Shown here piece after piece: positions 5,401 to 64,000 of a DNA stretch of 64,000 nucleotides. Numbering within the stretch: position 1 is the stretch's first letter; each line of letters opens with the position of its first letter. Position numbers and translations under genes: made by a program. The notes below the pieces were generated by a model. It was not told the DNA's origin. It saw nothing but the letters and a program-made list of their open reading frames with translations, and did not search any database. The DNA is from Candidatus Neptunichlamydia sp. Its GTDB lineage: Bacteria > Chlamydiota > Chlamydiia > Chlamydiales > Simkaniaceae. The stretch spans positions 512,001 through 576,000 of the forward strand of contig OZ247587.1 in NCBI GenBank assembly GCA_965233865.1, given 5' to 3'.

Positions 5401-5429
5401 ATAATAAGTTAGTTCGTTATTAATCGCAA
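5401..5429 (-). promoter_or_regulatory. sigma66/70-like promoter of the Lys-rich gene
   Basis: TTGCGA-N17-TATTAT on minus strand. Confidence 0.55.
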
Positions 5430-5699
5430 GTTGTTAATTATTAAAAAATAATGATTACTTATTATGTTCGTGATTTCTTAAAGAGTCAATGCAAAGCCTG
5501 GAGTGAATAAGCGTTGAGTTGAACTCAAATCCAACGTATAGATTAGGCTCTGTCCCTAAAGATAAAAATTGATTAGACTTTCATAGAGCAAACCTAATCG
5601 AATTAATTACTTTCATTGGGAGTGACAGCATCAGGTGATAAAAACTTAAGCATTGCTTATAGATAAAGTGACTTAAATTAGTTATTGTCAGTACTCCCT

Positions 5700-6126
5700 G
5701 GAAATCCTATCTATTCCATATCACTTTAGCCATATTGGCCAAGGAGAAGCCCTTTTTAAGAGATGACTGCTGTAGTTTTTTGCTTGCTGATAGGAGGATA
5801 TGATAGTGATCCATTAGGAAAATCTTAGCAGAGAAAGGGATTACTCCAATAATTCCTGAGGGGAAAGTATTTCTTTCGCTTTATTAAGGGCCGTAGCGAG
5901 TCCTTGAAACCCATCGTATCTAGAGTTTTTATCTTAATGAAAAAAAACATAAACTTTCTGTAGTTATTCTTTTGTTCGCTTCTGTTATCAATGGGAGCAA
6001 GAAGAATATAAGCAACTTGTTCCTTTGTCCAATGTTTTTATCTTGTAAATCATCTCTGTTCTTAGGAGTATATTCGGGCACTAGTTTCCCCGTGACTTTG
6101 TTATAAGATTCTTTAAAAGCAGCCCA
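5700..6126 (-). pseudogene. probable degraded gene abutting the IS remnant; identity unknown
   Basis: Short coding-like stretches in shifting minus frames (WAAFKESYNKVTGKLVPEYTPK; HWTKEQVAYILLAPIDNRSE); boundaries approximate. Confidence 0.35.
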
Positions 6127-6683
6127 TGAGTTACGATTGCATCGCTGTCATAACCCCGATCTGCTAGTAGGTAATCGGCGTTAATTCCCTCTATTTAAGT
6201 GTTTGGCCTGAAGGTAGTCTGATTGAGTACCTGACGTAATAATCGCTCTGACCGGCATACCATGCGAATCCACGGCCAAATGTAATTTCGTGTTGAACCC
6301 CCTTTTGTTCGAGCCATATCTTGATTACCACCTTGTGCACCTGCTGCGTGAAAGTGAACTTTGATATGGGTTGCATCGATCATTAACCACTCGTAATCAG
6401 GATCGTCCACCACTTTTTCCAGAAGAAGTCCCCAGACACCTTTATTCTTCCAACGGATAAAACGACGATGCACATTTCCCCAGTTCTCATAGTCTGGAGG
6501 TAAGTCACGCTATGGAGCTCCGGTACGAATAATCCAAAAAACCGCGTTGATAAATCGCCGATTATCTTGTGCTACCCCTCCCCACACCCCTCTTCTTTCT
6601 GGAAGATAAGGCTCAAGTTTTTTCCAAATTCGACCTGACATATCGTGACGTCTGTGCGCTGGTACGGTCATCTCTAAACCTCT
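6127..6683 (-). mobile_element. truncated, inactivated IS5-family copy (same element as 12262-13106)
   Basis: Near-identical reverse complement of ~12317-12873; TGG>TAG stop at 6510-6512; both IRs and the 3' part missing. Confidence 0.92.
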
Positions 6684-7109
6684 TTCTAGTTATGGACTAG
6701 TTTCTTGTAGGAAGAAAAGATAGAATTTTCATTAGAGATTCCAATAATAAAATCTAACAATAGATTATGTTCAAGTTGATAGGTTTATGAGAGAAGAAAC
6801 ACCCCAGCTTTTTGACATGATCCAGCAGCAGCAAGGAGAGATTTCAGAACAGTGGATAAAAAAAACTATATGCTCTTGGGGGTAACCCATATATTTCTAG
6901 AAATAGAGCTCATACCTTGATTTTAAGAGCGATTAAATTCCTGGTTTAACCTCTCAGGAGTATTGACAGATTGAGCTACTTTTTTCCTCATGGAATAGGG
7001 ATGACACCACCTAAATTTTAAATTCTCAAGAGAGGAAAAGAATTAATGATTGCACTGGAGTGCTTGGGCATGTTAAAATTCCATTTTTTAGTTAGAAGGA
7101 GTATGGTCA

Positions 7110-12261: not shown

Positions 12262-13106
12262 TATTGTGTAGACTCAAGTTTAAATTTGCGCTAAGCTGGT
12301 TTCTTAAACTTTCAAGGAGAGGTTTAGAGATGACCGTACTAGCGCACAGACGTCACGATATTTCAGATCGAATTTGGAAAAAACTTGAGCCTTGTCTTCC
12401 AGGAAGAAGAGGGGTGTGGGGAGGGGTAGCACAAGATAATCGGCGATTTATCAACGCGGTTTTTTGGATTATTCGTACCGGAGCTCCATGGCGTGACTTA
12501 CCTCCAGACTATGGGAACTGGGGAAATGTGCATCGTCGTTTTATCCGTTGGAGGAATAAAGGTGTCTGGGAACTTCTTCTGGAAAAAGTAGTGGACGATC
12601 CTGATTACGAGTGGTTAATGATCGATGCAACCCATATCAAAGTTCACCCTCACGCAGCAGGTGCACAAGGTGGCAATCAAGATATGGCTCGGACAAAAGG
12701 GGGCTCAACACGAAATTACATTTGGCCGTGGATTCGCATGGTATGCCGGTCAGAGCGATTATTACGTCAGGTACTCAATCAGACTACCTTCAGGCCAAAC
12801 ACCTAATAGAGGGAATTAACGCCGATTACCTACTAGCAGATCGGGGTTATGACAGCGATGCAATCGTAACTCAAGCGATCTCTCAAGGAATAAAGGCGGT
12901 TATCCCTCCCAGAAAAAATAAGAAAAGCAAGAGAGCTTATGGTAAGCATCTCTATAAATTGAGACATCTTGTAGAAAATGCTTTTTTACATTTGAAGCGA
13001 TGGAGAGGAATTGCTACACGCTATGCTAAGCACACATCTTTTTTCTTGGCTGCGGTTCAGATCAAATGTTTGGCTTTATGGGTGGAAATCTCGTGACTAC
13101 ACTATC
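12262..13106 (+). mobile_element. apparently intact IS5-family insertion sequence
   Basis: Imperfect terminal IRs (tattgtgtag.../...ctacactatc), TA on both flanks, two-ORF transposase. Confidence 0.9.
12330..13096 (+). CDS. IS5 transposase, OrfA/OrfB joined by a -1 frameshift at AAAAGGGGG (12695-12703)
   Basis: RTGAPWRDLP, IDAT in OrfA; KLHLAVD, ADRGYD, RHLVENAF..LKRWRGIATRY in OrfB. Confidence 0.9.
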
Positions 13107-13152: not shown

Positions 13153-14004
13153 TTATAAAGGAGAAGGGGCAGACCGGGTTCGCCAATACAGGGGACCGTA
13201 ACAATATGTCATTTGGGTCCCTTTCGGAATAAACTTGTTAGAGAAGAGGATGATGTGAGTGATTCCATTATTGATCACCCATCGGGAAGTAAGATTTGGG
13301 GTGTCACTATGGTTAAGAAAGCGCGTGAAATTGCCGATTGACTTAGCATCGATGCTCCAACGTGTTGCTTTCCCGCAAAGATCGTAGCTAAAAACATAGT
13401 CATTAAAGCGGTTTTTACGGTTGTTCTTCCTTTCTACAATTCCAGTATACTCCCCTATGTAGGTATTAGCAGGAATATCAGTAGCAGCATAAACGCCATA
13501 GCCGAGATAGCGATTAATCCAACGAACATAATAGAAGTTTTCTCGATGAAGGCCTATTGATTTTTTATGGAGACAAAGAGTCCAGTGATTCATCTGTCTG
13601 AGATTAGTTTTCTTCATCTTTCGGGCGCATTTTTTAGCAACTTTGTAAATCATCTCAGAAGAATCAAAGATTAGAGAATCAGAATAGGTCATTTCGAGCC
13701 GCTCTTCAAATTCTTTTATTGGCATGGGGAATGTTTTTTCATCCCGGTTGCGGTAGACGAGAATTGAGCGGTCTTCTTCTTGCACAAGAGCATTTTTTTG
13801 ATTCAGAAACTTGGTCAAAGAAAGGGGCGTCAGCCCCCATTTATCAGAAAGAGATTTAGCGCCTTTTTTGAGAAGGAATTCGACTAAATCTGGGCGATTT
13901 TCTATGACAGCAAGATGGAGAAGGGTTCTCCCCTTCTTTGTCTTTTGATTGACTCCCCACTCCCCTTTCTTAAATGCCGCAAAAAGGGAGGCCAATTGTT
14001 TCAT
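13153..14004 (-). CDS. ankyrin-repeat + SET-domain lysine methyltransferase
   Basis: GRTLLHLAV..LVEFLLKKGA ankyrin; GYGVYA, IGEYTG, RFLNHS, TYCYG SET motifs; ATG 14004 overlaps upstream TGA. Confidence 0.9.
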   Translation of the reverse strand: MKQLASLFAAFKKGEWGVNQKTKKGRTLLHLAVIENRPDLVEFLLKKGAKSLSDKWGLTPLSLTKFLNQKNALVQEEDRSILVYRNRDEKTFPMPIKEFEERLEMTYSDSLIFDSSEMIYKVAKKCARKMKKTNLRQMNHWTLCLHKKSIGLHRENFYYVRWINRYLGYGVYAATDIPANTYIGEYTGIVERKNNRKNRFNDYVFSYDLCGKATRWSIDAKSIGNFTRFLNHSDTPNLTSRWVINNGITHIILFSNKFIPKGTQMTYCYGPLYWRTRSAPSPL

Positions 14005-15413
14005 AGATGTCCAAGAATCTTCCACCATCCTGTCCCGATAGTGAAGTATATAAGGATGTTGATAAGACTTGCAAAAAGACCAAACTTCCACCAATCAGTG
14101 ATTTTTATATATCCAGATCCAAAGAAAATCGGTGCGGGGCCGCATCCATAGTGGGTAATTCCTCCCATCATGTTACTAAAGAATCCGAGTGTTAGCGCAG
14201 AAATCATGGGGGGGGCTCCAAGAGCAACCATCAAAACCAAAAATGCTGAATACATTGATCCGATATGTGCCACGACGCTAGCAAAGAAATAGTGGCTATA
14301 AAAATATACTAAAGCAAGTATGATAAAAGCTGTGAACCAAGGAAACCCTTGGACATGTCCTTGAACAAACCCACTAAACCATGTGGTTAAACCCAATTTA
14401 TTGAGGTAGGTTGCCATCATGATAAGGGTAGCAAACCACATTAATGTATTCCAGGCTCCTTTTTCTTTTATGACATCATCCCATGAAAGAACTGAGGTCA
14501 GAAGGAGAATCACAAGACCAATTAGAGCTGCAATCACAGCTGGCATTGCAATAAAAGGGCCTAAAATCCATAGAGTGATAAGGAGGACAAAAGAAAAAAT
14601 CATGATGCATTCTTGAACACGCATTTTACCCATTTCCTTAAGCTTTTCAACTGCAAATGAGCGCGCATTCGGAGTTTCTTTCACCTCTGGGGGATAAACT
14701 TTATACAGAAATAGTGGAATTACTCCCAAACAAACCAGCCCTGGAACTGAAGCAGCAAGGGCCCAACCGCCCCAAGTAATATTTACTCCTATTCCTCCTG
14801 CAATCTCAGCAACAAGAGGATTACCAGCCATAGAAGTCAAAAACATTCCACTTGTGATAATAGACCCTTGAAACGTCGCTTTCATTAAGAAAGAACCTAG
14901 TCGTCTAGGGTGGCTATAAGGTTCACTTCCAAAGGCCTTAGCAAGCGAATTCACGATAGGATATATAATTCCACCTACTCGGGCAGTAACACTGGGGATT
15001 GCTGGGGCTAAAACCAGATCTGTCAAGATCATCCCGTACCCCATTCCTAGTGTGCTTTTTCCAAGGTATTTGATGATAATATAAGCAATACGCTCACCTA
15101 GACCAGTCTTGATGAACCCTCTAGAGATAAAGAAGGCAATTACAATCAGCCAGACAATAGGGTGAACAAAGCCACTAAAGGCCTGATCAAAAGTCAACGT
15201 TTTTGACGCAGCAGTAAGGACTAGCCCTACAAATGCAAAAGTCCCTATTGGAACGGGGCGTAGAATGATTCCGATCACGGTAAAGATAAAAATTGCAAAC
15301 ATATGCATTGCTTGCGAAGTGACTCCGTTAGGAGGCGTGAGGTTCCAAATAAATGCACCAATAATGATACTTAGGGCAAAGGAAAGAATTTTTTTATTAA
15401 AGACTCTAGACAT
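14001..15413 (-). CDS. DASS-family dicarboxylate (2-oxoglutarate/malate-type) transporter
   Basis: PAIPSVTARVGG, MFLTSMAGNPL, HYFFAS, THYGCGPAP. Confidence 0.92.
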   Translation of the reverse strand: MSRVFNKKILSFALSIIIGAFIWNLTPPNGVTSQAMHMFAIFIFTVIGIILRPVPIGTFAFVGLVLTAASKTLTFDQAFSGFVHPIVWLIVIAFFISRGFIKTGLGERIAYIIIKYLGKSTLGMGYGMILTDLVLAPAIPSVTARVGGIIYPIVNSLAKAFGSEPYSHPRRLGSFLMKATFQGSIITSGMFLTSMAGNPLVAEIAGGIGVNITWGGWALAASVPGLVCLGVIPLFLYKVYPPEVKETPNARSFAVEKLKEMGKMRVQECIMIFSFVLLITLWILGPFIAMPAVIAALIGLVILLLTSVLSWDDVIKEKGAWNTLMWFATLIMMATYLNKLGLTTWFSGFVQGHVQGFPWFTAFIILALVYFYSHYFFASVVAHIGSMYSAFLVLMVALGAPPMISALTLGFFSNMMGGITHYGCGPAPIFFGSGYIKITDWWKFGLFASLINILIYFTIGTGWWKILGHL

Positions 15414-19761: not shown

Positions 19762-20025
19762 ATGGAACTTGAAAAAATGCGTGAACAGATAGAAGGGATC
19801 AATGGAGAAATCATTACCCTTTTAGCAAAACGAAAGGCTCTGACACTGAAGATTTCTGAGCTAAAAAAGAAAGAAAAAATGCCTACCTATGATCCTGTCC
19901 GAGAGAAGAAACAAAGGATGGCGATTAGCATCAAGGCGCGGGCAAACAATCTGAATCAGGAAGCAGTTCTTTCCTTTTTTGATAATTTTGTCGCCTATTG
20001 CAGACAAGAAGTGGAGAATCATTAG
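19762..20025 (+). CDS. AroQ-type chorismate mutase (now in frame with the DAHP synthase 3' ORF)
   Basis: LEKMREQIEGINGEIITLLAKR...K...YDPVRE; own AGGAG SD and ATG 19762. Confidence 0.82.
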   Translation: MELEKMREQIEGINGEIITLLAKRKALTLKISELKKKEKMPTYDPVREKKQRMAISIKARANNLNQEAVLSFFDNFVAYCRQEVENH

Positions 20026-20470
20026 GAATCATTACACTAGGTCCTGAAGGAACATTTTCACATCAAGTGGCAATGAAGCTATACCCAAAGAAAAAACTAG
20101 CGTTTGCTTCATCTATTGATGAGATTTTTATAAGACTTGCAGACCCTCAATTTTTGGAAGAGATTGTTCCCATGGAAAATACGGTATCCGAGTTTGTTGA
20201 AGAAACGATTTTTAATCTCATGAAATACGATTTCTCACTTGTCAGAAAAATTATTTTTCCCGTTTCCTTTAACCTCGTTGGCGTAGACGAAGAGATTGAG
20301 TACCTTTATGCGCAGCCCCATGCTCTTATGCAGTGTCGAGCATCAGTGAGAAAAAAGTGCCCTCAAGTGAAGATCCTTGAAACTCTGAGCAATGCTCTTT
20401 CAGCAATTCAGTATCAGGCCAACCCTAAAAATAGCGCTGCCCTTGTTTCTACGTTTTCTCAACAATACTA

Positions 20471-21352
20471 GGTTGTGTTGAGAAATTTCCATAAATGGTG
20501 CAAGCTGACTTCCTGAAGAAGGAGATCTATATGCTATACCCGCATAAAATAAATGACCACGCCTGGTCGAAACTTTACGAATATCTGAGTAATTACCCCA
20601 AAATACACACAAATAACAAAGAGAAAACTCGTTGCTTTGTAGAGGCTGTATTTTGGATTGCCAAGAGCGGAGCACAATGGCGTTTGCTACCAAAGGAATA
20701 TGGAGACTGGAATGCCGTCTATCATCGTTTTGCAGACTGGGCTGAACATGGTGTGTGGTACAAGATGCTCTACTATTTTTCAAATGATCCAGACATGGAA
20801 TATATTATGATCGACAGTACAGTCCTCCGCGCTCATGCCTGTGCCGCAGGAGCCAATAAAAAAAAACCGGAGGTCAAAGCGAGCAGGCCTTAGGTCGATC
20901 CTGTGGAGGTTTTACGACTAAAATCCATAGTATCTGTGATGCATTAGGTAATCCACTTGATTTTATTTTAACAGGTGGTCAAGCAGCTGATTGTCATCAA
21001 GCTATTCCTTTGCTCAAAGGTAGGGATTACAAAGGCTACGACAGCAATGCAATCATTGATCATGTAAAGAGCATTGGAGCTGTTGCCATCATTCCCTCAA
21101 AGAAAAATCGCATTGATCATGTAAAGAGCATCGGAGCTGTTGCCATCATTCCCTCAAAGAAAAATCGCATTGATCATCGAGAGCATGATAAAGACATATA
21201 TAAAGAACGACACAAAATCGAATGTTTATTTGGCTTCCTCAAACATTATAGACGATTGTTTTCTCGGTTCGAGAAGTTAGCATCAAGGTTCAAGGCATTC
21301 CTTCATTTTATCGCGGCTCTCCAATGGTTAAAGTAAATTTCTCAACACAACC
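20471..21352 (+). mobile_element. IS5-family element with damaged transposase
   Basis: Perfect 18-bp IR GGTTGTGTTGAGAAATTT; TA duplication 20469-70/21353-54; OrfA from ATG 20531 (GAQWRLLP, IDST), A9 slip site 20858-20866, OrfB GGFTTKIH, RHKIECLF. Confidence 0.95.
21055..21168 (+). repeat. 57-bp tandem duplication inside the IS transposase
   Basis: IDHVKSIGAVAIIPSKKNR x2 with one nucleotide mismatch, bounded by CATTGATCAT. Confidence 0.95.
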
Positions 21353-43190: not shown

Positions 43191-43276
43191 GCCACAATCT
43201 AGTATCAAAGAGCTGTCGTAAATACGCTTCTTTCTTCTTTTGAAATTGAAGGGGTTGGCAGAGAGGGCGAGTCCTT

Positions 43277-43315
43277 AAAAAAGATTGCTACCCCCAAAAG
43301 GGGACAGCAATCTTT
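43277..43315 (-). terminator. intrinsic terminator hairpin
   Basis: Minus strand AAAGATTGCTGTCCCC-TTTTG-GGGGTAGCAATCTTT running into a T6 tract. Confidence 0.75.
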
Positions 43316-43343
43316 ATGGATTGAGGTATGGTTTGTTGCGTTT

Positions 43344-43412
43344 CTAAAACTGTATGTGGAAGAGGAGTCTGTGATTTTGAATTTTGATGATGTGGGAAAT
43401 GGCCGCTGCCAT
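43344..43412 (-). CDS. putative 22-aa peptide MAAAISHIIKIQNHRLLFHIQF
   Basis: AGGAG SD 6 nt upstream, promoter-like TTGAAT-N17-TAAAGT (43445-43473), terminator downstream. Confidence 0.4.
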   Translation of the reverse strand: MAAAISHIIKIQNHRLLFHIQF

Positions 43413-43674
43413 TTTTACTCCTGCCTTAGAAAAGATTTACACGAACTTTATACTGTGCGCTAAATTTATTCAAACTTTTTATGAAACCTTTGAGATTCCC
43501 ATCGATAAAAGCCCCAAAATACAAGCAATAAGCATGAAGAAAAGAAGCGACGAAATGTTTTTCTGTTTTTAAATTCACGCCAACAACTTATAGCTAGTTT
43601 CTTTTTACCATTCATACTTTATTTGATTGTATTCTCATACGGGTATTGTAGGTATATTGTCCTGTACTAAGCCA

Positions 43675-44349
43675 TTAGATATTAGATAAGAACACTGCCG
43701 TTGCTTGTGAAACATTGAGGGAATCAATCGATCCTTGCATTGGAATCATCACGTGGAAATCTGAATTTTTTGAAAGCAAAGGCTGTATTCCACTTCCTTC
43801 AGCCCCCATGATTAACAAGGTTTGACTCGGAAATTCAAAAGAAGAAAGACAGTGCGCTCCAGGGGCCACTTCCGCTGCTACCGAGAAATAGCCTCCTGTT
43901 TGGAATTTCTTCAAAGTATCGGCTAAGTTCGATACTGGCATCAAAGGAACGATTTCAGAAGCGCCCACACTTGCTTTACTCACCACAGGGGTCAGAGCTA
44001 CGTTGCGGTTCTTAGAGTAGATCACAGCGTCTACACCAAAACATTCAGCAGCACGGAGGATCGCTCCAAAATTCTGCGGATCATTGATCGAGTCAACCAT
44101 CAAAACAACGCCCTTCTCAGGCGCAGTTTTTAGAAACTCTTTAGGGACTAGAAACTCCCTTTCCTTCACTTCTGCAATGATTCCTTGGTGCGATTCTGAA
44201 CCTGCCATCGCACTAAGCTTCTGCTTTGAAACAACAGTCACGTCGATTCCTAGATGATTCTTTTTTTTATGAGCATAGACTCTAATTAGTCGTTCAGGGT
44301 TTCTCTTTGCCACCTCTTCAATGGCATGTTTCCCCATAATCACTCTCAT
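43675..44349 (-). CDS. rlmB: 23S rRNA 2'-O-methyltransferase (TrmH/RlmB family)
   Basis: HQG, DPQNFGAILRAA, GAEGSG, IPMQG.IDSLNVS. Confidence 0.92.
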   Translation of the reverse strand: MRVIMGKHAIEEVAKRNPERLIRVYAHKKKNHLGIDVTVVSKQKLSAMAGSESHQGIIAEVKEREFLVPKEFLKTAPEKGVVLMVDSINDPQNFGAILRAAECFGVDAVIYSKNRNVALTPVVSKASVGASEIVPLMPVSNLADTLKKFQTGGYFSVAAEVAPGAHCLSSFEFPSQTLLIMGAEGSGIQPLLSKNSDFHVMIPMQGSIDSLNVSQATAVFLSNI

Positions 44350-44765
44350 TGCTTAAACTCACTTTCAATAATAATATTTTTCTTCTGCCCCGAAATCGAG
44401 TAGCGTGTCAAAAATTTATTAGGGTTAACCCAATTCCACTGGAGGAAATATGAATCGCTTTTGCACTTAGCAAGCCCTTTGAGTTCTCCATCAATAATAG
44501 GGAGCCTCATAAAAAGACGCTCATCTTCTTCTTGATAAAAGAAAATCAACACCTGCTCTAGCGTAAAGTGATATCGGTAAAATTTTGTGGCAAACAAGAA
44601 TTCTTCGTGCTGCGTTTCATGACACATTTGTTCCTGGTATAGGAGCTGGTTTTCTTCATAAATATCGAAGAATCCACTCCCCCACATTCTCCCTTTAGAT
44701 GTCCCATCAAAGGCTGAAATGTTCCTCTGTATCCTCCACTTTCCAATCAAATCTTCTTTCTTCAT
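44346..44765 (-). CDS. DUF6314-like beta-rich hypothetical protein
   Basis: GKWRIQRNI...Y.EQ...Y.Y...RLF...C..D.Y pattern. Confidence 0.6.
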   Translation of the reverse strand: MKKEDLIGKWRIQRNISAFDGTSKGRMWGSGFFDIYEENQLLYQEQMCHETQHEEFLFATKFYRYHFTLEQVLIFFYQEEDERLFMRLPIIDGELKGLAKCKSDSYFLQWNWVNPNKFLTRYSISGQKKNIIIESEFKQ

Positions 44766-44872
44766 ATGAAGAGTATAACATCTTTTAGAGGTATAATGGA
44801 AGTTTGATTTGTTGCTAAATAAAAAATTAGATATAAGAGTGTAGATCTAAATTTTAACCCCAAGGCACCTCT

Positions 44873-45055
44873 ATGGAAGTCCTCGTTGTAGTCTCTAAAG
44901 TCAAAAAAATGATTAAGGAAAAATCTGGAATGAACACCTCTTCATCTTCAATGGAGGCTCTAACCCAAATTATTCACAGCGCATGTGAAAAAGCGGTAAG
45001 CAATGCTCAAGCTGACGGGAGAAAAACTGTCATGGATCGCGACTTTGAAGTTTAG
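44873..45055 (+). CDS. bacterial histone-fold protein (Bd0055-like)
   Basis: EVLVVVSKVKKMIKEK.GMNTS...A..NA.ADGRKTVMDRDF: alpha1-L1-alpha2-L2 (RKTV..RD) with truncated alpha3. Confidence 0.9.
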   Translation: MEVLVVVSKVKKMIKEKSGMNTSSSSMEALTQIIHSACEKAVSNAQADGRKTVMDRDFEV

Positions 45056-45327
45056 GATTTTATTTCTCTTATGTTTTTAAGCCCCTTCTTTTTGCTTCCT
45101 CAATTGCAGGAGCTTCAGGGGGCTACAAAAATGAGGAAGCTTTAATCATTTGCCAATAATAGCTACTACAAAGCTCTCTCTCACCTTAAAATGCTTAAGA
45201 AAGGGCCTTAGCTCTCTGCATGGTTTGACAACCCGCACCACCTTCAACTTTTAAAAACAGAAAACACTGGTAAAATAATTTTTAATCAGAAATAGTTCGA
45301 ATAAAGACTAATTATATGGTGCTATGT

Positions 45328-46104
45328 ATGAAAAAGGCTCTCATTATTATTTTCGGAATTATTGTTGTTTTAATTCTTGGAGGGATCCTTGTTTGGAATA
45401 TGCTTCCTACAATTGTTTCTCACAAATTATCAAAACAAGCAGGGGTATCTGTTACGATTGGAGGCATTCAAGTTAGCCCATCTACCGTTCGAGTTGACTC
45501 AATTCGTGTGGGAAATCCATCCGAATATAAAAAGACATCTCGTGCTCTTTCAGTAAAAGAATTGGGGATCAATGTTCCACTTACTCGATTCTTTGATGAT
45601 AATATAGTGATTGATGAAATGACAATAGATGATGTTTATGTGGGCCTAGAATTTGATTCTCCCAAAAGTAAGAATGGGAACTGGACAATAATCATGGATA
45701 ATATAAGCAAGTCTGCTAGTGACGAAAAAGATAAGGCAAAGAAAGCAGGAAAATCAACCTCAGTTCTTATTAAAAAGCTAATTATTACAGATCTTAAGAT
45801 TGAGCTTGCCTATAAAACTGGTGGGAAACTCACCCAAAAGCTGCGACCTATTGGTTGGATTGAGCTGACAAATATTAGTAGCGAAGGCGGTATTCCTACC
45901 TCGCAAATCATGAATATCGTTATGCAAGAAACGCTTCGCAATATCTTCAGCACAGAGGGACTTCAAAATATGCTTGAAGGTGTTCTAGATCCAAGCGGTT
46001 CGGGAGAAGGTGTTATGGACTCCATAAAAGGACTCTTCTCTGATGTTATCCTTCTAGATAATGATTGGAAAGATTATGAAGTGGAGTTTGAAGAGGCTCA
46101 ATGA
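45328..46104 (+). CDS. AsmA-like membrane-anchored protein
   Basis: N-terminal TM, GVSVTIG, NP, IVIDEMTIDD..NW. Confidence 0.7.
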   Translation: MKKALIIIFGIIVVLILGGILVWNMLPTIVSHKLSKQAGVSVTIGGIQVSPSTVRVDSIRVGNPSEYKKTSRALSVKELGINVPLTRFFDDNIVIDEMTIDDVYVGLEFDSPKSKNGNWTIIMDNISKSASDEKDKAKKAGKSTSVLIKKLIITDLKIELAYKTGGKLTQKLRPIGWIELTNISSEGGIPTSQIMNIVMQETLRNIFSTEGLQNMLEGVLDPSGSGEGVMDSIKGLFSDVILLDNDWKDYEVEFEEAQ

Positions 46105-62640: not shown

Positions 62641-63020
62641 GGATCATAGGATACTCCACAAAAGAGGCAATCGTCAAGGAGCTAATTCAAAATTTCATCC
62701 CTATATAATAAATATCTCAAACTCAAGAAACTTTCTGATTCTTGCAGAGCAAGATAAACTGCTTCTCTATTTGAACAAACTTCTCTTCTCCTCGTTTTTA
62801 CTGAAAAGAGGGAATATGATTTAGGTTAAGAAATTAGTGGAATAGTTTCATTATATTCTCGTATTTTTTTTAAAAAGTTATTAAATTATAAAAATGATTT
62901 CAAGAATTAAAGTTTTTATTAAACTCATGACTCTCAAGGGTTTTATTTTGAAAAATGATTGCCTTAATTTCTTATTTTAATTTATAAAGACCTGCTAAGC
63001 AGAACATTTTTTGAGGTGAC

Positions 63021-64000
63021 ATGGCTAAACGCTCCTTACTCGCACTTACCCTTCTCCCCATTGCATTAATGGCAAAACCTTCAGGACCAGATGTTATCCA
63101 GGGCGATGCAATTTTTGTACATCCAGCGAAACACACAATGCAAATTGTAACGGGAGACCAAACAATCATCAATTGGGATGAGTTTTCAATTGATTCCGGT
63201 GAAACAACCCGGTTTATTCAACCGAATCATTCTTCGGCTGTCCTCAATCGAGTCGTTTCAGGAGCCGAAAGTCACATTATGGGCTCTCTTTTTGCTAATG
63301 GAAAGGTCTTTCTTGTAAACCCCAATGGCATCCTTATTGGCCCTGATGCAACAATCGACACCCATGGATTCATTGCCTCAACTCTCGATGTTTTAGATAG
63401 CGAGTTTATGAAAGGAAGAGACCTTCGCTTCCTTGGTAATTCCGAAGGAAAAGTCGTAAATCTCGGGAAAATTCGAGCCTGGGACGGAGACATTGCCCTG
63501 ATTGGGAGGTTTGTCGAAAACCAAGGGTTACTTCAAGCACCAAAAGGAATAGCAGCTCTTGCCGTTGGAAAAGAAGTCTTATTGAAACCGAGCGATGAGG
63601 AGCGTGTGTTTATTTGTGCTTTGAGCCAAAATTCTAGCAAGAAAGGAACAGGTATTTTCAACAGTGGTGAAATCGAGGCATTAAAAGTACGTCTCCTTGC
63701 TGACGGAAACCCTTATAAGCTAGCCATTAATCATGAAGGCAAGATTGATGCGACTAAAACAGAAGAAAGGCATGGAGAAATCTATCTTGTTGCAGAAAAT
63801 GGAACGGTAGAAGTCAATGGAGAAATTTGCGTTGCAAAGGGTGATATCAGGGTCCTTATCAGTGAAATGCTTACGGACCTTCACCCCTATGATGAATACT
63901 TAGGATGGCTGCTAGAATTCCAAACAGCTTATGCTGCTTTAGAATCTACGAAAATAGATGAGAAGGTAACTTCTAGTTTTCAAGTTATCCCAGACCAGCT
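63021..64000 (+). CDS. filamentous haemagglutinin N-terminal (TPS) domain protein, runs off the window; absent from the ORF track
   Basis: GAGG SD, signal peptide, IINWDEFSI, VLNRV, NGKVFLVNPNGILIG; frame read as open to base 64000. Confidence 0.9.
   Translation, partial: MAKRSLLALTLLPIALMAKPSGPDVIQGDAIFVHPAKHTMQIVTGDQTIINWDEFSIDSGETTRFIQPNHSSAVLNRVVSGAESHIMGSLFANGKVFLVNPNGILIGPDATIDTHGFIASTLDVLDSEFMKGRDLRFLGNSEGKVVNLGKIRAWDGDIALIGRFVENQGLLQAPKGIAALAVGKEVLLKPSDEERVFICALSQNSSKKGTGIFNSGEIEALKVRLLADGNPYKLAINHEGKIDATKTEERHGEIYLVAENGTVEVNGEICVAKGDIRVLISEMLTDLHPYDEYLGWLLEFQTAYAALESTKIDEKVTSSFQVIPDQ

Follow-up and report, generated by a model that had tools for sequence, protein, structure and literature searches.

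As judged from its sequence and its predicted structure, the 60-residue protein encoded at positions 44873..45055 (plus strand, stop codon included) of the 64,000-nucleotide stretch of DNA analysed here (hereafter the window) is an alpha3-truncated histone of the HBb/Bd0055 'bacterial dimer' class. By homology to HBb, a dimer of this protein would be a small nucleoid-associated protein binding the bacterium's own DNA, a reading to which we assign a probability of about 0.78. The identification is based on the open reading frame (ORF), on sequence matches in the PDB, on a structural model and on the dN/dS ratio of the gene. A single contig of 1,830,388 bp (41% G+C) contains the window, and the genome is chlamydial and Simkaniaceae-like.

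The 60-aa ORF, which starts with ATG and ends with TAG, is a real gene and not a chance ORF. Because an in-frame stop is present at 44855-44857, 5 codons 5' of the ATG (the open frame comprises 65 aa), it is not part of a longer protein here. An AlphaFold2 model was built from an alignment of 44 homologs (alignment A1), in which 15 columns are invariant. The model has a mean pLDDT of 90.7, with 0 residues below 50, and consists of three predicted helices: alpha1 (residues 4-18), alpha2 (residues 26-47, i.e., 22 residues) and alpha3 (residues 55-58, i.e., 4 residues). The predicted structure thus shows both features of the class, an alpha3 cut to 3-4 residues and a shortened alpha2. The original prediction had described a standalone ORF with two helices, the L2 motif GRKTVMDRD (residues 49-57 of the protein) and almost no third helix, and both the ORF and the model agree with this description. 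The calculated pI is 7.9, with 9 K+R for 8 D+E; with this near-neutral charge, the protein is not an obviously basic DNA-coating protein.

When the protein was compared with all PDB chains using phmmer, the best matches were HBb chains (8fvx_A, E 5.5e-16; 8cmp_A, E 6.2e-16), with an alignment free of gaps over residues 2-58. The next matches were HTkC (9f2c, 5e-5), HLp (9qt0, 6e-4) and HmvA (8bdk, 9e-3). A Foldseek search of the PDB with the model returned 5 matches at E <= 0.001, all of them HBb (TM 0.81-0.83, rmsd 1.7-2.0 A), to which the protein is 56-58% identical in the structural alignment; HTkC and HLp came next (TM 0.76-0.79), ahead of the nucleosomal histones of archaea and eukaryotes (TM 0.5-0.65). 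The likeness to Bd0055 noted in the original prediction is therefore borne out by both searches, and the Foldseek comparison with Bd0055 and HMfB that had been proposed alongside it places the protein with HBb, HMfB reaching a TM of only 0.5-0.65. The scores against family models fell short of their cut-offs, at 20.4 bits for 21.4 with Pfam PF00808 (CBFD_NFYB_HMF) and at 30.9 bits for 50 with NCBIfam NF043032 (archaea_histone), and the family assignment consequently rests on the PDB and fold matches. Both models derive chiefly from histones of the nucleosomal type; the scores fit a divergent, non-nucleosomal subclass and argue against filing the protein with the archaeal nucleosomal type, not against the histone fold.

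Ten residues of HBb contact DNA: N22, R57, S9, T53, T8, S24, K10, K12, K52 and K16 (Hu et al. 2024, PMC11317129). Nine of the ten are identical in the window histone (S8, K9, K11, K15, N21, S23, K51, T52 and R56), and each of them is either invariant or conserved to 90% or more across the 44 aligned sequences. The sole change, T8 to V7, is also found in most close relatives. The RxTxxxxD motif is present as R50-K51-T52-V-M-D-R-D57, with the R50-D57 pair, and the alpha1 lysines K9, K11 and K15 are spaced by 2 and 4 residues, as are positions 11, 13 and 17 of the class HMM; the motif and the lysines alike are invariant or conserved to 90% or more in alignment A1. Sequence clustering defined the 'bacterial dimer' category, whose members lack the residues through which FtF dimers join, R48 and N52 in the HMM logo (Schwab et al. 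2024, PMC11390915). Tetramer formation by HLp, for its part, uses R49 and N53 (PMC12701072). The positions of these two residues are occupied by N44 and D48 in the window histone (alignment A3), so that, of the FtF interface residues R49, N53 and R55, only R55 is kept, as R50, which is also a residue of the RD clamp.

Modelling of two copies of the histone yielded an ipSAE of 0.91 in 3/3 runs, compared with 0.01 for the best control, with a partner pLDDT of at least 94 and 100% of the contacts in agreement between runs; the ipSAE mark is reached by 20/30 solved pairs and by 1/23 single chains. In the model, the chains contact each other through alpha2-alpha2 (residues 30, 33, 34 and 37) and through loop 1 (21-23) against loop 2 (52-53), and the modelled interface is the classical handshake. 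Dimer modelling, which the original prediction had put forward as a check, thus gave a score far above the control; however, this score may reflect solved HBb dimers that the predictor has memorised and, since such dimers have been solved at 57% identity, the result shows likeness and is not independent proof.

The window histone is 93% identical to that of locus L003, which belongs to a metagenome-assembled genome (MAG) submitted as Simkaniaceae. The two genes differ by 9 synonymous and 5 non-synonymous changes (dN/dS 0.13), and comparison with locus L004 gave 8 and 5 differences respectively (dN/dS 0.15). For more distant members of the family, synonymous sites are saturated and the protein is still 67-80% identical. 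The histone gene is under purifying selection. In the protein collection, 69/69 candidates were relatives, several of them named 'histone H3/H4' or Chlamydiales/Chlamydiae, and across species-representative genomes at least 370 loci code for one.

By Pfam, the gene order around the histone is SpoU methyltransferase, DUF6314, histone, AsmA-like, histidine phosphatase and Sua5. The SpoU/TrmH-family RNA 2'-O-methyltransferase (224 aa; 43675..44349, minus strand; PF00588, 128.6 bits, and PF08032) and the divergent DUF6314 protein (139 aa; 44346..44765, minus strand; PF19834, 62.9 bits) lie upstream, and an AsmA/DUF748-like membrane protein (262 aa; 45316..46104, plus strand; PF05359 and PF05170) is the downstream neighbour. 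Synteny was compared in 80 histone loci, a shared neighbour being counted at E <= 1e-8. Gene order is kept on both sides in seven of them (L003, L004, L005, L006, L042, L060 and L081) and on one side in L031, L033, L024, L034, L036, L018 and L025; L035 shares the AsmA-like gene only, on the other side of the histone, and the remaining 65 have no shared neighbour at this threshold. The SpoU gene is found upstream of the histone gene in 14/80 loci, DUF6314 adjoins it in the seven loci cited above and in L024 and L033, and the AsmA-like gene lies downstream in the same seven and in L031. The DUF6314 and SpoU genes are conserved synteny partners of the histone gene. The SpoU-histone pair is found both in MAGs with a Simkania label and in one labelled Candidatus Aerophobetes (L025, 43% identity), which may be a mislabelled bin or carry a transferred gene pair. 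Among the matches listed, the closest histone loci belong to MAGs submitted as Simkaniaceae, Chlamydiia or Chlamydiales; together with the neighbourhood of the histone gene and the Hc1 gene described below, this makes the assignment of the host as chlamydial sound.

We infer a promoter for the histone gene from the alignment of its relatives (alignment A4). This putative sigma-70/sigma-66-like promoter (44809..44837, plus strand) lies in the 107-bp divergent intergenic region and would comprise a -35 element TTGTTG (44809-44814), a 17-nt spacer and a -10 element TATAAG (44832-44837). The corresponding module in L042, L060 and L081 is TTGATT-17 nt-TATAAG/TATAAA, and that of L004 is near-identical. 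A consensus scan found no plus-strand promoter upstream of the histone gene and no terminator after it; the putative promoter was not reported by the scan because its -35 element matches at 3/6 positions and its -10 element has a G at the last position. A weak Shine-Dalgarno-like AAGG is proposed at 44862..44865 (plus strand), 7 nt before the ATG, and most of the aligned relatives have AAGG/GGAG at the corresponding position. In G045, a relative of the same genus with a 2.1-Mb genome, a 657-aa ORF is located between the DUF6314 and histone genes (L003:1692-3665; G045:C1:1089356-1091329); it is absent from the genome studied here and from L004. Similarity between G045 and the window resumes ~43 nt before the histone ATG, and the proposed promoter is therefore displaced in G045.

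Downstream of the histone stop codon, only 260 bp remain before the AsmA-like gene (45056..45315, plus strand). Alignment A2 and blastn identified this segment as the remnants of two deleted genes, a PRK/uridine-kinase-family gene and a Legionella_OMP-family gene, with a 1.47-kb gap between window positions 45186 and 45204. Both genes are intact in L003 and L004 (243 aa for the kinase-family and 340 aa for the OMP-family protein in L003; PF00485, 131.9 bits, and PF05150, 64.7 bits). The kinase remnant is the 5' part of the gene, from which the P-loop codons have been lost, and the other remnant corresponds to the last ~13 codons of the Legionella_OMP-family gene. The deletion junction was recovered with 0 differences in contigs of sequencing runs X1, X2 and X4, one run being from a second study; this check used contigs of four runs and shows only that the sequence and the junction exist in them.

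At a larger scale, the window was compared with 51 kb of collinear sequence from G045. Among the 48 ORFs of at least 120 aa in this region of G045, some of which may be spurious, 23 have a full counterpart anywhere in the genome under study, 3 are left as remnants and 22 have no counterpart. Between glpD and the methyltransferase gene, G045 has a block of about 20 kb (G045:C1:1092457-1112419) that is absent from the window, where a 484-bp ORF-free stretch is found (43191-43674). Three genes of this block are found elsewhere in the present genome (C1:239827-242813), which lacks a counterpart for most of the rest; the block represents either a loss here or a gain in G045. Two copies of an IS4/IS5-family transposase with DUF4096 and DDE domains, in overlapping or separate frames, are present in the window (12264-13096 and 20495-21336, both plus strand). 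The second copy directly follows a prephenate dehydratase ORF (19998-20471) that covers profile positions 1-146 of 181 only, and it may have truncated that gene. In two further stretches, 5413-7109 (1.7 kb) and 62641-64000 (1.4 kb), there is no ORF of at least 100 aa and no Rfam match. Since Rfam gave 0 matches at the gathering threshold in the whole window, the ORF-poor stretches contain no known RNA genes; they may be further pseudogene remnants. The histone gene had been portrayed as intact amid widespread decay. It is intact and its two 3' neighbours are reduced to remnants, but 'widespread' goes too far, as the share of sequence in ORFs of at least 100 aa is still 85% in the window and 86% in the genome, compared with 92% in the G045 region. 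The decay is genuine, though of moderate extent, and has clearly left the histone gene in place.

We surveyed 401 sampled chlamydial genomes for the histone-fold gene, a match being recorded at E <= 1e-5. It was found in 93 of them (72/335 among high-quality genomes), and one of the HBb-type matches contained an internal stop. All 14 genomes of the genus (g1) keep the full-length frame. At the family level, 30/34 genomes of its own family (f1) have a match, the four others being fragmented MAGs of 88-94% completeness; the counts are 19/69 in family f7 and 9/90 in f9, and 0/23 and 0/46 among the sampled genomes of f3 and f6. The small-genome neighbour of its own family, f4 (1.0-1.4 Mb), has 0/30, including 0/25 for genus g19. 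The survey across Chlamydiota suggested with the original prediction therefore gave a divided answer: the gene is a regular component of its own family, but 308/401 genomes are without a match, and it is thus dispensable for the chlamydial lifestyle in general. Outside the phylum, among the matches listed, the HBb family is common in MAGs labelled Bdellovibrionota, Oligoflexia, Planctomycetota, Myxococcota and 'Proteobacteria'. A tree of 81 histones over 58 columns is poorly resolved (5/77 inner branches starred); the Chlamydiota label changes 5 times on it, compared with 18.2 in shuffles. The chlamydial histones may have one origin, and between a single origin and transfers this tree cannot decide.

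Chlamydial nucleoid proteins of other families are also encoded in this genome. The Hc1 gene is present (PF07432, 58.3 bits), as it is in 339/400 sampled genomes of the phylum, with 27/34 in its own family and 29/29 in f4. The near-universal presence of Hc1, beside the histone, makes the histone fold an addition to Hc1 and not a substitute; the two are not alternatives in this genome. Two HU/IHF genes were found. Hc2 was not detected in this genome with PF07382, a result bound to that model as Hc2 is repetitive and variable.

A second histone-fold gene, encoding 68 aa, is located ~142 kb past the end of the window (G000:C1:718002-718205, minus strand; L002:1498-1704). Its product is 37% identical to the window histone and resembles FtF/HLp-type histones in sequence: its best PDB match is HLp (9qt0, E 5e-8), and the residues equivalent to HLp R49, N53 and R55 are conserved in it, R54 and N58 standing at the R49/N53 positions (alignment A3). 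An N-terminal MAKKK..KKAKK tail is present in 20/21 family sequences aligned, the alignment having taken in 20 of the 27 homologs found, and residues 1-12 are modelled as disordered (pLDDT <50). Strong matches to this protein (E <= 3e-22) are confined to its own family, in which they occur in this genome and in 11/34 others; seven weaker matches are HBb-type genes already counted in the phylum survey. Positively charged tails have been described as common in bacterial FtF histones (PMC11390915), and Chlamydiota are absent from the phyla named for FtF histones in the parts of two papers that were accessible (PMC11390915, PMC12701072).

By homology to HBb, we infer DNA binding by the window histone, its binding mode, its abundance and its action on the bacterium's own DNA. 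Two 60-residue chains would pair head-to-tail via their long alpha2 helices and the L1-L2 loops, and the dimer would bind the bacterium's own DNA without sequence specificity. Contacts to DNA would be made by K9, K11 and K15 of alpha1, by N21 and S23 of loop 1 and by K51, T52 and R56 of loop 2 (RKT...R). The dimer might either bend DNA like HU/IHF or coat it, the two modes reported for HBb, and it would work beside Hc1, the two HU/IHF proteins and the second, tailed histone.

The same fold and dimer could instead serve a low-abundance or condition-specific regulator, acting at one developmental stage or at a few loci, which we consider unlikely and still the strongest of the competing explanations. 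With Hc1 and two HU/IHF genes already present, a global packaging role of the histone is not required; moreover, the protein is near-neutral, its gene is patchy in the phylum, and prokaryotic histone-fold proteins need not all be global organisers (Schwab et al., PMC11390915). However, the residues with which HBb makes its non-specific minor-groove contacts are kept, save one, the 60-aa protein has no extra domain that would give sequence specificity, and high expression has been reported both for HBb in Bdellovibrio and for the homolog in Waddlia. These points favour the nucleoid-associated dimer over the regulator.

A more elaborate version of chromatin organisation in Simkaniaceae, which we regard as distinctly improbable, would be layered and stage-dependent. 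It would combine the HBb-type bending dimer with the lysine-tailed FtF-type paralog and Hc1; the paralog, found only in its own family, would probably be tetrameric and wrap DNA, and its positively charged tail could be modified by a SET-domain methyltransferase. A protein with a SET domain (PF00856, 76.5 bits) and ankyrin repeats (313 aa; window 13153-14094, minus strand) is encoded ~31 kb upstream of the histone. SET proteins of chlamydiae are known to methylate histones or histone-like proteins, and a link between this SET protein and the histones of this genome is speculation. Layered chromatin with tail modification would, if true, be a bacterial counterpart of histone-tail regulation.

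It is more improbable again that the protein is a secreted effector, i.e., a histone mimic sent into the eukaryotic host to disturb its chromatin. Obligate intracellular chlamydiae do send chromatin-directed proteins to the host nucleus, such as NUE and Wcw_0377 (PMC6426960). Arrival there has been reported for chlamydial SET-domain and SWIB-domain proteins, and the SET and ankyrin protein is encoded in the same window. However, among the matches listed, the family is widespread at 57-74% identity in MAGs of Bdellovibrionota, Oligoflexia, Planctomycetota and Myxococcota, carriers that do not live inside eukaryotic cells. In the model, alpha1 starts at residue 4, and no disordered N-terminal stretch, the place usually occupied by type III signals, precedes it. 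In addition, truncation of alpha3 removes the surface through which nucleosomal histone dimers are joined (PMC11390915). Lastly, a non-functional relic ORF in a decaying genome, to which the gene loss in its neighbourhood might point, is very unlikely given a dN/dS of 0.13-0.15, a full-length frame in 14/14 genomes of the genus, 15 invariant columns across 44 homologs and a single internal-stop match among the HBb-type matches. The preferred reading thus remains that of a dimeric nucleoid-associated protein of the HBb type.

The original prediction implied that a histone fold in a chlamydia would be new, which is not the case. Hocher et al. (2023, PMC10627809) reported a histone-fold protein highly expressed in Waddlia chondrophila, for which the source of the expression data was the Additional files of Beder & Saluz 2018, and their supplement files 5 and 7 contain sequences from Waddlia, Simkania negevensis, Waddliaceae and several entries named 'Chlamydiae bacterium'. 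Bacterial dimer histones have been assigned to Chlamydiota, along with other phyla (Schwab et al. 2024, PMC11390915), conservation of the HBb contact residues in Chlamydiota has been noted (Hu et al. 2024, PMC11317129), and Simkania and Waddlia proteins are aligned beside HBb in Fig. 1b of the 2025 HLp paper (PMC12701072). HBb itself is described as an abundant and essential DNA-binding protein in Bdellovibrio (PMC10627809, PMC11390915). In the portions of these sources that were accessible, Beder & Saluz 2018 discuss hctA only (PMC6090853), the 'chlamydial histone homologs' of a 2026 mSphere paper are HctA/HctB, and the Waddlia paper using heparin and ChIP makes no mention of a histone-fold protein (PMC6426960). 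Our literature search found no experimental test of a chlamydial histone-fold protein. The window histone is hence a correct identification of an already described phenomenon and, as distribution and sequences are already in print, its value lies elsewhere. A fold long thought absent from bacteria is encoded by a stable, selected gene of one environmental chlamydia family, and is still found in a genome where adjacent genes are being lost. What remains of interest is that this histone occurs together with Hc1, HU and a tailed FtF-like paralog, and that a shrinking genome has kept it. With its cultivable relatives Simkania and Waddlia, the locus offers a system with a two-stage developmental cycle, in which one may ask what role a bacterial histone plays while the nucleoid alternately condenses and opens.

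Among known systems, Hc1/Hc2 (HctA/HctB), the H1-like nucleoid condensers, are likewise small DNA-associated chlamydial proteins but are unrelated to the window histone in fold and family; Hc1 is near-universal (339/400 genomes), whereas the histone-fold gene is patchy (93/401). The histone fold and the handshake dimer are common to HMfA/HMfB and the eukaryotic core histones. However, nucleosomal histones have a full alpha3 of ~10 residues and a dimer-dimer four-helix bundle, whereas the alpha3 of the window histone has 4 residues, and the four-helix-bundle surface that stacks dimers into (hyper)nucleosomes is consequently missing, alpha3 truncation being what removes the dimer-joining surface of nucleosomal histones (PMC11390915). 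With this short alpha3 and a TM of 0.5-0.65, the term 'core-histone-like' first applied to the protein overstates the likeness. HLp of Leptospira perolatii (9qt0) and HTkC of Thermococcus kodakarensis (9f2c) share the alpha3-truncated fold and the RD clamp but, unlike these face-to-face tetrameric histones, the window histone has N44 and D48, and its sequence matches to them are far weaker than those to HBb. HBb of Bdellovibrio bacteriovorus (8fvx, 8cmp, 9ezz, 9f0e) belongs to the same length class and has the truncated alpha3, the RxTxxxxD motif and the alpha1 lysines; it differs in that the host of the window histone is an obligate intracellular chlamydia which also has Hc1. The proteins of Simkania negevensis (F8L7X8/CCB88880.1) and Waddlia chondrophila (D6YWW1/ADI38622.1) are of the same phylum and histone class, and the loci L024, L034 and L036, which carry a Simkania label, encode histones with 63-67% identity to the window histone and share the upstream SpoU methyltransferase. 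The window copy differs from the catalogued Simkania and Waddlia members in its genus, a separate one within the family, and in the loss of both genes that would follow it downstream.
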